A DNA stretch of 64,000 nucleotides, taken from NCBI GenBank assembly GCA_031291995.1, contig JARLHZ010000004.1, forward strand, positions 5,272 through 69,271, written 5' to 3'. Within the stretch, counting starts at the first letter, position 1. Each line of letters opens with the position of its first letter. This DNA comes from Candidatus Doudnabacteria bacterium (GTDB taxonomy: Bacteria; Patescibacteriota; Doudnabacteria; UBA920). Of the stretch, positions 9,083-44,122 are shown in pieces. The position numbers were made by a program, and so were the translations under genes. Under the pieces are notes generated by a model. The model searched no databases and was not told the origin of the DNA. It was given only the letters and a program-made list of their open reading frames with translations.

Positions 9083-9190
9083 TGCCAAATTTCAGATTTC
9101 AAATATCAAATCAATGGCGAAGTTTAAAATTTAAAATTTAAAATTAGGATTTGATTTAAAATTTTTAATTTAAAATTTGTAATTGTGTCC
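9083..9190. repeat. word-built hairpin, caaatttcaaat / atttgaaatttg family
   Basis: ccaaatttcagatttcaaatatcaaatc ... gatttaaaatttttaatttaaaatttgtaattg are inverted arms of A/T-rich words. Confidence 0.6.
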
Positions 9191-10098: not shown

Positions 10099-10200
10099 TT
10101 CGAAATTGCAAATATCAAATTTCAAATCAAGGCCAATATCTTAATTTTTTAATTTGGCATTAAAAATTGATTTGAAATTTGTAATTTGGTATTTGTCATT
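10099..10200. repeat. word-built hairpin, caaatttcaaat family
   Basis: cgaaattgcaaatatcaaatttcaaatcaa ... ttgatttgaaatttgtaatttggtatttg. Confidence 0.6.
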
Positions 10201-14276: not shown

Positions 14277-14323
14277 TATTCGCTTTTCAATCGACCGTTT
14301 AGAAAAACAAAAATTAGGAGATC

Positions 14324-14352
14324 AAAAAACCATCATCAAAGATGGTTTTTTG
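14324..14352 (+). terminator. rho-independent terminator
   Basis: aaaaaccatc-atcaaa-gatggttttttg is a stem-loop followed by a T-run, downstream of 12318-14276. Confidence 0.6.
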
Positions 14353-14481
14353 ATAGTCACGGGTCTGCCGCCGAATATTTATGCTTAACGCGTTAGGCCT
14401 GACCCGGATAGTTATTTGCACTATAATTTGCATCCATCGGTTGCAAATAATTTCAATAAGCGTAAACTGTAGATAGCCATT

Positions 14482-14563: not shown

Positions 14564-14656
14564 CGTCATCCCCGGCTTGACCGGGGATCCAGAATTGTTC
14601 TTACTTGCTTGACTTGGATTCCTCCGTCCGCCTTAGGCGGGAGGACGGGAATGACG
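14564..14656. mobile_element. MITE-like element copy (TGTCATCCCG family)
   Basis: cgtcatccccggcttgaccggggatcc ... ggcgggaggacgggaatgacg. The termini are inverted (gtcatccccg / cgggaatgac). Confidence 0.45.
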
Positions 14657-14717: not shown

Positions 14718-15251
14718 ATGCCGAAAAAAGATTCGACCGCGGTAAATGAAGTTTTATTTTGGCTGTACGAGACGGGGAAGCTTTTGTCCGTAATTTTCGC
14801 GTCCAAGCACGAATGGAAAAGGCGGATGTGGAATCATACCTGGGGGAACTACAACAATTATAAATCCACGGTTTACCATATGCGGGAACAGGGGCTGGTG
14901 GAAATCGTGTCCAAAGATGGCTTAAGGTTTTTAAAACTTACGTCCAAAGGGCAAATGGAAGCATTGCTGGCCAAAGCAAAAGTCGTTAAGCGAGCAGTTT
15001 GGGATAAAAAATGGCGGGTGCTGATTTTTGACATCCCGGAAGACGCCAAATTGCAGAGGAACCAATTCAGGCGTCTGTTAAAAAGAAATGAATTTAAAAA
15101 ATTGCAGGCCAGCGTTTATGTAAACCCCTACCCGTTTAACCGCGAGGCAATTGAATATTTAAAAGAATCAGGTTTAATAAAGTACATTCGGATTTTAAAA
15201 GTTGAAGAAATGGACAGTGATGCCGATTTGCGTAAGATGTTTAATATATAG
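14718..15251 (+). CDS. wHTH + Cas2/VapD-fold (PaaX-like) small protein
   Basis: N-terminal winged-helix-like region (VYHMREQGLVEIVSKDGLRFLKLTSKGQ). The C-terminal region matches the Cas2 beta1-alpha1-beta2 pattern (KKWRVLIFDIPED...QFRRLLKRNEFKKLQASVYVN). No cas1 or array is present. Confidence 0.4.
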   Translation: MPKKDSTAVNEVLFWLYETGKLLSVIFASKHEWKRRMWNHTWGNYNNYKSTVYHMREQGLVEIVSKDGLRFLKLTSKGQMEALLAKAKVVKRAVWDKKWRVLIFDIPEDAKLQRNQFRRLLKRNEFKKLQASVYVNPYPFNREAIEYLKESGLIKYIRILKVEEMDSDADLRKMFNI

Positions 15252-15325
15252 GACTTACTTCTTTCAAAGCGGAACACATTTTTTAATGAGCTTCTGATAC
15301 TAGTCAAATAATCTAAAAATAAAAT

Positions 15326-15363
15326 TGGTAGACAAAACGCGCGGCCGCACGTTTTGTCTACCA
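15326..15363. repeat. 38-bp palindrome, copy 2 (one mismatch)
   Basis: tggtagacaaaacgcgcggccgcacgttttgtctacca. Confidence 0.9.
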
Positions 15364-15732
15364 AAGACAAGAGTTGTATTTTTATATTTATAGGCGATAT
15401 TGGCGAATGGCGCGGGTGGTGTGGCGTGGCAAATCAAATCGGATATTCTGAAGGCAATTTCGGTTTTAATCGACACTATTCCCCGGAGCCCCACTCCAGG
15501 GTTAACAATTATGTCATCCCGGAATTTTTCAGGGCTGTGAAAAATATCCGGGATCCAGTCAGGGCGGCATTCTGGATCCCGGCTCTCTACCTTCGTCAAG
15601 GCTACGGCAGACAAGTCGGATGTATTCGGCCGAGCTGATACACTAGCTATTTGGACTTGTTACCACGCTGCTCTGCCGCGGGGAGGGCTCATTGAAAATC
15701 TGATGCCAATCTTAATAATCTAGAAAGAAAAT

Positions 15733-15770
15733 TGGTAGACAAAACGTGCGGCCGCACGTTTTGTCTACCA
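15733..15770. repeat. 38-bp perfect palindrome, copy 3
   Basis: tggtagacaaaacgtgcggccgcacgttttgtctacca. Confidence 0.9.
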
Positions 15771-15955
15771 AAGACAGGTTTTGTTGAAATTATATTTTAT
15801 AGACGATATCGGTGCGTGGCGCGGGTGGTGCGGGGTGGAAAATCGTCCCGGATATTCTAAAGGTAATGTCGGTTTTATCTAATTTTTACCAATACACAAA
15901 ATTGTTCCGTTTCCCGTAGGTTTGCCGGACTATATTTTGACTTTAATTCACAAGT

Positions 15956-16115
15956 TTGCCGAGGTTACTTCCCACTGGCCCTGTGTCATTGCGAGGAAAC
16001 AAGGGCTTTGACTTATTTCCGAAGCAATCTTAGAGAGACAATAAGATTGCTTCGTCGGCTGCACTCCTCGCAATGACACAACAATTCAATACCCAGTGGG
16101 CAGTAACTTGCCGAG
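15956..16115. mobile_element. MITE-like element with ~45-bp imperfect terminal inverted repeats
   Basis: Left arm ttgccgaggttacttcccactggccctgtgtcattgcgagga. Right arm tcctcgcaatgacacaacaattcaatacccagtgggcagtaacttgccgag. Internal palindrome gaagcaatcttagagagacaataagattgcttc. Confidence 0.55.
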
Positions 16116-16119
16116 TATT

Positions 16120-16147
16120 TTGTGATTTTTGGGGAATGTGGTATAAT
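16120..16147 (+). promoter_or_regulatory. sigma70-like promoter candidate for the VirB6-like gene
   Basis: -35 ttgtga at 16120-16125, a 16-nt spacer, and an extended -10 tgg-tataat at 16139-16147. It sits 24 bp upstream of the ATG at 16171. Confidence 0.4.
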
Positions 16148-16170
16148 TTTAGTGAAAGTCTTATCCACAA

Positions 16171-24782: not shown

Positions 24783-25181
24783 ATGGCAGATCAAAACAAA
24801 ATAATCCATAAGGATCTCAGTTATAAAATTGTCGGTGTTGCTTTTAGATCTTTTAAGGCAACAGGATATGGAATGCCTGAAAAGTACTGTCAAGGTGTGT
24901 TCGCTGCCGAACTTGAGAAAGCTGGGTTGCACTTTAATCGGGAAGTTTATGTTACTTTAAATTATGAAGGTAAAGTTATCACAAAGTATTTTTTAGATTT
25001 TATTGTTGAAGATTCGGTGGTTGTGGAATTAAAAGTTCGGCCAAAAATCGGATATGCCCATATTGAACAAGTAATGGCATACCTTAAAGCAACGAATAAG
25101 AAATTAGCGATTTTAATCTATTTTACCCAAGAAGGTGTGAAATATCGGAGAATCGTTAATTCTTACAACAAACTACAATGA
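24783..25181 (+). CDS. GxxExxY-family protein (PD-(D/E)XK-like)
   Basis: DLSYKIVGVAFRSFKATGYGMPEKYCQGVFAAELEKAGL...FLDFIVEDSVVVELKV...IEQVMAYLKATNKKLAILIYF. Confidence 0.7.
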   Translation: MADQNKIIHKDLSYKIVGVAFRSFKATGYGMPEKYCQGVFAAELEKAGLHFNREVYVTLNYEGKVITKYFLDFIVEDSVVVELKVRPKIGYAHIEQVMAYLKATNKKLAILIYFTQEGVKYRRIVNSYNKLQ

Positions 25182-25923: not shown

Positions 25924-26030
25924 GTCAAATTATAAATATCAAATTTCAAATCAATGTCAAAGTTTGAAATTTAAAAAATTTGTAATTAGGTTTTGATTTG
26001 AAATTTGTAATTTGATATTTGAAATTTAAC
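25924..26030. repeat. word-built hairpin, caaatttcaaat family
   Basis: tgtcaaattataaatatcaaatttcaaatcaatgtcaaag ... ttttgatttgaaatttgtaatttgatatttgaaattt. Confidence 0.6.
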
Positions 26031-33454: not shown

Positions 33455-33640
33455 GACAAGATTGACATAATTGAACAAAATTGACAAGATTATCATAGTA
33501 TAACCTTGTCAATTTTTTTTGGCTCGGCATTCTTTACACCAGGAACTACTTAGCAAAAATCGTTTATGATATTCCTGTCAATCCTGTCAATCCTGTCAAT
33601 CTTGTCAATCTTGTCAATCATTTTACTCTTGTCAATCATC
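33455..33640. repeat. word-built inverted arrays (ttgacaag x3 upstream, cctgtcaat/cttgtcaat x6 downstream) around a terminator hairpin
   Basis: ctgacaagattgacataattgaacaaaattgacaagatt ... hairpin ttgacaagattatcatagtataaccttgtcaa followed by an 8-T run ... cctgtcaatcctgtcaatcctgtcaatcttgtcaatcttgtcaatc. Confidence 0.6.
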
Positions 33641-43378: not shown

Positions 43379-44122
43379 AAAAAGGGGTCAGGAGCCATTT
43401 ACTAGAAGATAGTTTTGTGGTATCTTTAAAATATGCCCAGATCCCAAAGAGCCGACATAGCCAATATTATTTACCATGTCATCAACCGGTCCAATGCCAG
43501 AATGGCCATTTTTGAAAAAGCCCAGGATTTTCTGGCCTTTTTGGAAGTTTTAAGTGAAGCCAGGGAGAAGTTTCTTGTGGAAGTTCTGGCTTTTTGCATA
43601 ATGCCCAACCATTGGCATTTAATTTTAAAACCTTTAAAATACGGGGAACTGTCCAAGTTTATGGCCTGGCTGACAATGACCCATACCCAGCGCTGGCATG
43701 CCTTTCACCACACCGTCGGCAGCGGCCATTTGTATCAGGGCAGGTACAAGTCTTTTCCGGTTCAAACCGATGAGTATTTTATTCAACTAGTCCGGTATGT
43801 GGAAAGAAACCCATTAAGAGCAAAGTTAGTCAAAAGTGCCGAAGACTGGAAGTGGGGCAGTTTATGGTTAAGGCAGCAGGGGACTTTACAACAAAAGCAA
43901 TTACTCGGTTCCTGGCCCATACCGCCGAGTAAAAATTACCTGAAGTTGGTTAATACTGTTCAACCTATAGCCGAAGTCGACTCTATTAGAACCGCCATTG
44001 CAAAAAACCGACCCTTAGGAGACGACCGCTGGGTACAACGCACGGCTAAGACATTGGGTTTAACATCCTCATTAAGAAACCCGGGTAGGCCAAGAAAAAA
44101 CGGCTCCTGACCCCTTTTTGTT
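43379..44122. mobile_element. IS200/RAYT-like unit: tyrosine (HUH) transposase gene bracketed by 18-bp perfect inverted repeats
   Basis: aaaaaggggtcaggagcc at 43379-43396, and ggctcctgacccctttttg at 44104-44122 overlapping the stop codon. Confidence 0.6.
43433..44110 (+). CDS. REP-associated tyrosine transposase (RAYT) / IS200-like HUH transposase
   Basis: HUH motif MPNHWHLIL, a conserved Y in RYVERNP, and the typical N-terminus YHVINRSNARMAIF. Confidence 0.75.
   Translation: MPRSQRADIANIIYHVINRSNARMAIFEKAQDFLAFLEVLSEAREKFLVEVLAFCIMPNHWHLILKPLKYGELSKFMAWLTMTHTQRWHAFHHTVGSGHLYQGRYKSFPVQTDEYFIQLVRYVERNPLRAKLVKSAEDWKWGSLWLRQQGTLQQKQLLGSWPIPPSKNYLKLVNTVQPIAEVDSIRTAIAKNRPLGDDRWVQRTAKTLGLTSSLRNPGRPRKNGS

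Follow-up and report, generated by a model that had tools for sequence, protein, structure and literature searches.

A family of short PaaX-like proteins with a Cas2-like domain, encoded beside long perfect palindromes in Patescibacteria

A large family of Patescibacteria genes encodes short relatives of the repressor PaaX and is often bordered by long, perfect palindromes. The member analysed here lies at 14718..15251 (+ strand) of a 64,000-nucleotide stretch from Candidatus Doudnabacteria bacterium (assembly GCA_031291995.1, contig JARLHZ010000004.1, positions 5,272 to 69,271), referred to below as the window, where an open reading frame (ORF) with an ATG start specifies 177 aa. Its product is a two-domain protein of the PaaX type that lacks the effector domain and is nearer to Cas2 than PaaX itself is. 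The palindrome bracket is a trait of the family, not a peculiarity of the window locus, and the palindromes of about 40 bp that flank the window gene are most likely binding sites of its protein. On balance, fold, motifs and site layout lead us to lean towards a sensor-less PaaX-type dimer that would bind palindromic operators and repress its own gene.

The protein is identical (100% match) to P4L74_00485, a hypothetical protein of a Candidatus Doudnabacteria metagenome-assembled genome. A sequence-only reading of the gene had proposed an N-terminal winged helix fused to a C-terminal half of Cas2/VapD fold, an arrangement that it compared with PaaX-like regulators, and both halves are borne out. 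Residues 93-169 (14994..15224, + strand) match PaaX_M (PF20803, the 'central Cas2-like domain' of Pfam) at E=1.1e-18 and 67.6 bits against a cut-off of 24, covering positions 2-78 of the 83 in the model. The match of the same domain to CRISPR_Cas2 (PF09827) is 42 bits lower, at E=1.8e-5 and 25.2 bits against 23.8, and aligns just the first 45 of 74 model positions. Similarly, the NCBIfam model TIGR01573 (cas2) is passed at 26.0 against 24.5 over the N-terminal half of the model only, and PADLOC Cas2 models match at E ~1e-6; defence-system and phage libraries hold nothing else for this protein. The PaaX equivalog TIGR02277 is matched over positions 38-159 of its 279 and reaches 34.1 bits, where 264.55 are required, and the VapD model NF041506 scores 14 against 100. 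PaaX_C gives no match at E up to 10 in Pfam, and the chain stops 8 residues past the Cas2-like domain, so the protein would not sense phenylacetyl-CoA. Among the domain assignments that the sequence-only reading had put up for checking, Cas2 is a borderline match beside PaaX_M, and PaaX_C and VapD fall away. With an architecture already captured by Pfam, the protein belongs to a known domain family.

Structure prediction gives the same picture. The AlphaFold model, built from 44 homologues, has a mean pLDDT of 76 (81-92 in the C-terminal domain, low over the first 40 residues) and begins with three helices and a beta wing, after which comes a domain of beta-alpha-beta-beta-alpha-beta topology. 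The winged helix-turn-helix (wHTH; 14736..14978, + strand), placed by the modelled secondary structure, Foldseek and profile matches, has a predicted recognition helix at residues 45-57 and a wing at 61-74. In the Cas2-like domain the predicted strands are residues 99-104, 127-130, 133-136 and 157-162 and the helices 108-123 and 142-151; the two motifs from which the fold had been guessed, WRVLIFDIPED and LQASVYVN, are residues 99-109 and 129-136. A Foldseek search of the PDB with the model ranks Escherichia coli PaaX (8a39) first and Mycobacterium tuberculosis Rv0674 (3kfw) second, followed by several Cas2 chains (5zyf has a target-normalised TM of 0.61-0.65 to the predicted structure), with a Jannaschia PaaX-like protein (3l09) twelfth and VapD (3ui3) thirteenth. 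The N-terminal half resembles the wHTH proteins F-93, AspA, MarR and IdeR. A profile search of PDB sequences returns the same order, PaaX then Rv0674, matching PaaX residues 57-165 as well as wHTH chains.

What sets the family apart from PaaX is its putative active site. In profile alignments the family motif FDIPE...LQ-SVY aligns with FDMP...QFSVY of Cas2, and the Asp is replaced in both E. coli PaaX (LLLSEGL) and Rv0674 (IVTSIG). The catalytic-type Asp that the sequence-only reading had singled out as worth a look is Asp105 (codon 15030-15032), and it is present in 248 of 249 family sequences; Arg114, Gln130 and Ser132 are each present in 247. Since these residues resemble the Cas2 active site and are kept, the family ties PaaX to Cas2 more closely than PaaX does.

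Could the protein simply be an orphaned Cas2 of a CRISPR adaptation system? Databases label members either 'CRISPR-associated endonuclease Cas2' or 'phenylacetic acid degradation repressor PaaX', and it is the former label, given to several members by PGAP and IMG, together with the Pfam, TIGR01573 and PADLOC matches, that speaks for this idea. It is nevertheless almost certainly wrong. The match stops after the first 45 model positions, PaaX_M scores far higher, and a wHTH is fused to the N-terminus. There is no Cas1 domain in window ORFs of 225-450 aa and there are no CRISPR-like spaced repeats in the 64 kb, as the sequence-only reading had said, no cas gene family recurs beside 79 homologous loci, and genomes hold several paralogues in housekeeping contexts.

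The palindrome itself, TTGGTAGACAAAACGTGCGGCCGCACGTTTTGTCTACCAA, is 40 bp long, with two 20-nt arms, no loop, perfect pairing and the centre GCGGCCGC. Copy P1 (14481..14520) is perfect, ends 197 bp before the ATG and is a probable, predicted operator. Copy P2 (15325..15364) begins 73 bp past the stop codon and carries one mismatch, T to C at 15340. A third, solo copy, P3 (15732..15771), is again perfect and lies 400 bp ahead of a TrbL-like type IV secretion gene. The earlier description of two 38-bp copies was thus right that the gene is flanked, short by two bases on length, and did not list P3. No palindrome match is expected in shuffled sequence, and neither a further copy nor a half-site occurs in the remaining 62 kb of the window; a scan of JGI metagenomes for the window palindrome gave zero matches. 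P2 and P3 belong to a duplicated segment of about 180 bp (15293-15470 and 15700-15880, 82-92% identical), each copy of which comprises one palindrome and about 105 bp on its right, with no consistent ORF across the segment. A small conserved ORF after P2 and P3 was considered and dropped, as the differences do not fall at third codon positions beyond chance and the frames differ.

The bracket recurs throughout the family. Eighty loci were fetched for a palindrome scan, and the statistics rest on the 79 homologous Patescibacteria loci, with strict criteria of zero loop, arms of at least 12 bp and at most one mismatch. The recurrent layout is a perfect, loopless palindrome of 24-58 bp (median 38) just 5' of the start codon and another that abuts or overlaps the stop. 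At least one palindrome is found at 52 of the 79 loci, on both flanks in 27 and on one flank in 25. Boundaries of family genes carry a palindrome in 73 of 156 cases (47%) against 19 of 1323 (1.4%) for other gene boundaries of the same loci (odds ratio 60, p=3e-61), and per base, palindromes are 45 times as dense near the family gene as in the remainder of these loci. Of 34 upstream copies, 30 end 5-63 nt ahead of the ATG, and 41 of 47 downstream copies have their start at -27 to +33 relative to the stop. The cassette-like placement between palindromes, which proves the most informative part of the sequence-only reading, is therefore conserved across the family.

The palindromes are also specific to their genes. 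Their centre is CGGCCG in 62 of 81, CGATCG in 9 and TGGCCA in 4, bordered by T/C and then an A/T-rich stretch, and centre types are common to related protein clades. The arms differ in every paralogue, and the two copies at one gene match each other, best at positions 1-7 and 12-16 from the centre and less well at 8-11. Differences between such copies comprise 71 compensated double changes and 10 one-sided ones, a ratio biased towards symmetry by the calling of palindromes with at most one mismatch. In two pairs of loci, an anecdotal sample, proteins with the same or a near-identical recognition helix share the outer arm block: AGTTGAT in L003 and L009, TTTGTTG in L016 and L020. All six members of the window's own orthologous group have at least one palindrome, 17-35 bp from the ATG or 9-27 bp past the stop (197 and 73 bp in the window itself), with a common inner core AAAA(T/C)GCGGCCGC... 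and outer arms that have diverged symmetrically. Orthologues at 47-69% identity retain their palindromes as well as the synteny while the arm sequence shifts symmetrically. Extra cognate copies a few kb away, ahead of other genes, are seen in two further loci (L068:1749 and L059:7470), as with P3 in the window.

A few observations on base composition stand beside these. From its base composition, the window would be expected to hold 9.6 copies of CGGCCG and 13.1 each of TGGCCA and CGATCG; the counts are 64, 36 and 5, so that CGATCG is under-represented. The notion that CGGCCG is a rare, avoided site was rejected on account of its 6.7-fold excess. A TTGACG centre, or -35 and -10 elements across the arms, can be made out in some loci, inconsistently, and no bidirectional promoter is claimed for the palindromes.

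Such palindromes could be generic terminators, insulators or mRNA-stabilising hairpins that have nothing to do with the protein. P2 and P3 are indeed terminator-like on the minus strand, where the hairpin is followed by TTTTATTTTT or TTTTCTTTCT, and across the family the palindromes fill the spacers between co-oriented genes. The enrichment at family-gene boundaries over other boundaries of the same genomes stands against this, as does the co-variation of centre and arms with protein clade. Moreover, a T-run follows the downstream palindrome in only 8 of 44 cases, and ordinary terminators in these loci are looped, GC-stemmed hairpins with T-runs. The boundary contrast and the scarcity of T-runs in practice exclude generic terminators, and palindromes unrelated to the protein are very unlikely overall.

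How, then, would the protein use them? In PaaX a winged helix is followed by a dimerisation motif in the middle and an effector domain at the C-terminus (PMC9493321). Its operator, TGATTC-N27-GAATCA, is 39 bp long, and PaaX represses its own promoter by steric hindrance (PMC9493321). The palindromes of the family have a comparable span (median 38 bp; 40 bp in the window), and the candidate promoters in the window and in the orthologous locus L081 end just before the upstream palindrome, which is the classic position of a repressor site. In the window this candidate, sigma-70-type and picked by eye from the sequence, is TTGCAA-16-TAAACT at 14441..14468 (+ strand), just 5' of P1, so that P1 would fall at about +6 to +46 of a transcript started there; in L081 TTGACA-17-TAAACT occupies the equivalent position, a few bases before the upstream palindrome. 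A consensus promoter scan of the window picked another site, 14399-14427.

In the mechanism that we favour, the protein would dimerise through its Cas2-like domain, as Cas2 and PaaX do, with the two-fold axis of the dimer on the centre of the perfect palindrome of about 40 bp. The conserved Cas2-like core would lie against the conserved CGGCCG/GCGGCCGC centre, and each of the two variable winged helices would recognise an outer arm, locus-specific in sequence, some 12-16 bp from the centre. In the Cas1-Cas2 complex a Cas2 dimer sits on the middle of a DNA duplex, the same geometry as the one proposed here. As the upstream palindrome lies at or just 3' of the promoter, binding of the dimer would repress the family gene. 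The copy at the stop codon may cooperate with the upstream one by looping, or may block transcription between the gene and its neighbours. P3 and the extra cognate copies in L068 and L059 suggest that some neighbouring genes may also be controlled. A nuclease-derived regulator, one of the two roles offered by the sequence-only reading, is the best-supported functional reading.

The palindromes could instead act in RNA, as 5' and 3' hairpins of the mRNA that the Cas2/VapD-like domain would bind or cleave, resulting in post-transcriptional autoregulation or in a VapD-like toxin restrained by its own N-terminal domain. Endoribonuclease activity is known from VapD and several Cas2 proteins, and VapD 3ui3 is among the fold matches. 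The candidate promoters lie 5' of P1, which would therefore be transcribed; the family gene is mostly co-oriented with both neighbours, in short spacers largely taken up by palindromes, and the palindromes may thus lie in polycistronic RNA. However, RNA hairpins do not require a self-complementary loop, and in nearly every palindrome the symmetry runs on across the centre. Among 1554 pairs there are 24 mismatches, 17 of them of transversion type and none a sense-strand G.T (G.U in RNA). The VapD model is far from its cut-off, no conserved partner or antitoxin gene is seen, and stable, vertical inheritance beside housekeeping genes is uncharacteristic of toxin-antitoxin modules. The self-complementary centres, the lack of G.T mismatches and the few T-runs favour a role at the level of DNA over one in RNA, which appears quite improbable.

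Several observations sit uneasily with a plain repressor. The palindromes are perfect from end to end, whereas a dimeric repressor requires just two half-sites; and positions 8-11 differ between the copies at one gene, yet each copy stays symmetric. Full symmetry of this kind hints that hairpins or cruciforms may also have to form, or that some process generates the symmetry. Detectable sites occur only around the protein's own gene and nowhere else in the 64 kb, which leaves no obvious purpose for a regulator. Asp105, Arg114, Gln130 and Ser132 are near-invariant although true PaaX lacks the Asp, and pure dimerisation would not require them. Finally, the relation of palindrome to promoter varies among loci, P1 lies 197 bp from the ATG in the window, and about one third of the loci, mostly those of distant relatives, have no palindrome under the strict criteria.

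Because the family retains the catalytic-type Asp of Cas2, a nuclease role at the palindrome centre has to be weighed. In this alternative the protein would be a site-specific nuclease or nickase whose Cas2-like dimer cuts the palindrome centres that the winged helices recognise, or resolves them as hairpins or cruciforms. The active site would consist of the pair of Asp105 residues at the dimer axis with Arg114 and Arg118, placed over the centre. By analogy with REP-associated transposase genes, the unit might be a domesticated or formerly selfish element: cuts at both centres would excise the gene, flanked by terminal inverted repeats of 20 bp, and a solo palindrome like P3 would stay behind. 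The near-invariance of Asp105 and the presence of Arg114, Gln130 and Ser132 in at least 99% of members, at positions aligned with the Cas2 motif and lost in PaaX and Rv0674, argue for such an enzyme, as does the fact that Pfam and TIGR models of Cas2 are passed, if barely. Perfect, loopless palindromes that stay symmetric while diverging are what would be expected of hairpin or cruciform substrates or of a symmetric origin, solo copies do occur (P3, L068:1749, L059:7470), and each paralogue has its own palindrome. On the other hand, the unit shows no trace of movement: even orthologues with as little as 47% identity keep the same locus, paralogues within a genome are just ~45-57% identical, the palindrome is not dispersed in the 64 kb, and 2.9 million viral contigs yielded a single relative. 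The conserved Arg could equally serve in backbone binding, and the nuclease activity of Cas2 is weak and dispensable for spacer integration. The end-to-end symmetry and the near-invariant residues keep a nuclease or structure-specific role in play, though an unlikely one. Somewhat more doubtful still is the broader proposal that the whole family consists of Patescibacteria-specific, palindrome-directed DNA enzymes, beyond mere repressors, that nick, cut or resolve DNA at the CGGCCG centre. Here two winged helices would steer a dimer of Cas2 fold, its acidic site intact, to the cognate perfect palindrome, and each palindrome-gene-palindrome unit would be a remnant or a functioning part of a Cas1-independent, repeat-associated Cas2-like system. 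If true, such a system could shed light on the divergence of Cas2 and PaaX from a shared nuclease ancestor.

A profile search of 1.84 billion cluster representatives (50%-identity clusters) returned 6343 relatives at E<=1e-3, and nearly all of the best 150 are 175-200 aa long with the same short architecture; PF20803 is present in all 120 homologues among the matches listed. With one genome per species, at least 586 stretches encode a relative, almost all of them in Patescibacteria and with three to five paralogues in several single genomes, in keeping with the claim that such PaaX-like proteins are common in the candidate phyla radiation (CPR). Paralogues of one genome share about 45-57% identity with the window protein and with each other. 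One of them, P0059 (P4L74_00420; 49% identity), is encoded on the same contig outside the window, between smpB and argS (context taken from another assembly), and another orthologous group is placed between a Kef-type antiporter gene and cysS. In the loci L012 (3359-3856, - strand) and L029 (6608-7108, - strand) a second, divergent member lies less than 3 kb from the first; the one in L012 is abutted at its stop codon by a palindrome of its own, whose centre is different (…GCTGCTTAAGCAGC…).

Family members are thus old, vertically inherited paralogues, and the unit is neither a currently mobile cassette, mobility being something that nothing suggests, nor a two-gene toxin-antitoxin pair. The proposal of a toxin-like module, the second role offered by the sequence-only reading, finds no support: no partner gene is conserved, orthologues are fixed among housekeeping genes, and the family is nearly absent from viral contigs.

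Synteny at the window locus points the same way. Orthologues at 65-69% identity in L081 and L083 occupy the same chromosomal place, in the shared order UvrD, KsgA, DUF192, three unannotated proteins, the family gene, a membrane protein of TrbL_3 type and the remainder of a type IV secretion cluster. More distant relatives in L001, L002 and L014 (47-57% identity) have an upstream neighbour of 652 aa in common. Across the family, no neighbour family is found in more than 6 of the 79 loci, and neither a recurrent cas gene family nor a conserved partner or antitoxin gene is among them. Scanned window ORFs include no paa gene, the neighbours being UvrD, KsgA, DUF192, secreted proteins and the type IV secretion cluster. 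A hairpin with a T-run at 14321..14354 (+ strand), found as inverted repeat I10 and in the palindrome scan, closes the upstream three-gene unit and separates it from the palindrome-gene cassette.

Downstream, the TrbL-like membrane protein of 1253 aa (16171..19932, + strand), assigned by synteny with an orthologue in L081/L083 that matches PF19590 TrbL_3, is encoded by the first gene of the type IV secretion cluster; it provides context for the family gene and is a possible regulatory target. It has its own conserved promoter, TTGTGA-16-TATAAT plus TG, at 16120-16147. The cluster continues with PrgI (24201), a TraC-like protein and a VirB4-like ATPase (26033).

The spacers around the family gene hold other elements. 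GC-rich small hairpins or inverted repeats occur at 14565-14592, 14612-14650, 15509-15590 and 15982-16080, examples being GTCATCCCCGGCTTGACCGGGGATCCAG and the 16-nt arms TGTGTCATTGCGAGGA/TCCTCGCAATGACACA, and they have no further copies elsewhere in the window. They look like insertions, since the spacers of the orthologous loci L081 and L083 are much shorter and lack them. An Rfam scan of the 2-kb spacer region gave chance-level matches to the hairpin only, so no known RNA family accounts for this region. A perfect DnaA-box consensus, TTATCCACA, stands at 16161-16169 (+ strand), 2 bp ahead of the TrbL-like start, and is kept in L081 and not in L083; DnaA boxes as such are not enriched in the window (16 against 12.6 expected), which has no skew turn, and the idea of a replication origin close by was rejected.

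Further features were noted in the wider window. Genes for a four-helix protein of the 23S rRNA-intervening-sequence type and for a PDDEXK_3 nuclease-fold protein lie among the secretion genes at 23749-24123 and 24783-25181, and the same cluster in L081 has three PDDEXK_3 copies (17778-20331). A family of AT-rich intergenic motifs, AAATTTGTAATTTGATATTTGAAATT, occurs at 9087-9177, 10103-10168, 24116-24174 and 25927-26026; an identical 26-mer of this type at 24149 and 26001, inside the secretion cluster, may be a shared regulatory or promoter element. Directly 5' of a RadA-like gene (33643) lies a tandem 9-mer, TCCTGTCAA, with 7.2 copies and 83% matches (33573-33637). An ORF of 225 aa at 43433-44110 (+ strand) matches Pfam Y1_Tnp, the IS200-like transposase, at E=9e-17; its length exceeds that of a typical IS200 TnpA, and it could be a domesticated Y1 transposase or one of the REP-associated type.

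The interest of the family lies in the organisms as much as in the protein. Patescibacteria are ultra-small, have few recognisable regulators and a largely obscure biology, and this is a large family with several paralogues per genome of ~1 Mb. Each protein comes with its own predicted site on both flanks of its gene, and hence with a testable binding-site prediction, which makes the family a tractable entry to regulation in Patescibacteria. In the window, regulation may extend to a type IV secretion cluster, a system thought important for epibiotic life. The labels 'Cas2' and 'PaaX' both mislead and can inflate counts of CRISPR components in a group largely without CRISPR. In the literature searched, we found no description of a family-wide bracket of cognate palindromes with a CGGCCG centre, of Cas2 active-site-like residues kept in a PaaX-type protein, or of the expansion of the short PaaX form across Patescibacteria, although earlier notice elsewhere is possible. 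In these searches, whose coverage was incomplete, 'PaaX' never appeared together with 'Cas2' or 'Saccharibacteria', and a paper on type IV secretion systems (T4SS) in Patescibacteria makes no mention of this gene.

Among known systems, an analogy is offered by the REP-associated tyrosine transposases (RAYTs), vertically inherited genes flanked by their own cognate repetitive extragenic palindromic (REP) sequences, which differ per paralogue. The likeness is one of arrangement only, the family gene also lying between its own palindromes, different for each paralogue. RAYTs have the HUH/Y1 transposase fold and not a wHTH with a Cas2-like domain, and REPs are imperfect and dispersed in many copies, whereas one to three local copies are seen here. 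VapD of Helicobacter pylori (HP0315, 3ui3), an endoribonuclease toxin, shares the fold class. It differs in sequence (14 bits against a cut-off of 100), no VapX-like partner is present here, and the family is not found on mobile elements.

With Cas2 (Streptococcus pyogenes 5zyf, Enterococcus faecalis 5xvn) the family shares the ferredoxin-like fold, predicted here, an Arg-rich first helix, FD(I/M)P at the end of strand 1 and Q-SV(Y/F) in strand 2. Unlike Cas2, the window protein has no cas1 or array in the window, is fused to a wHTH, and belongs to a family with housekeeping contexts and many paralogues per genome. Rv0674 and the Jannaschia PaaX-like protein have the same first two domains, but both are longer, with three domains, and Rv0674 has replaced the Asp at the end of strand 1. 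The same N-terminal winged helix followed by a central Cas2-like PF20803 domain, WDGKW motif included, is found in PaaX of E. coli W (8a39), whose 39-bp inverted-repeat operator is close to the span of the palindromes. The window protein, at 177 aa against about 310, lacks PaaX_C and has no paa genes nearby. Its family keeps the Cas2-type Asp that PaaX lost, and its predicted operators are perfect over their full length and stand on both sides of the gene.

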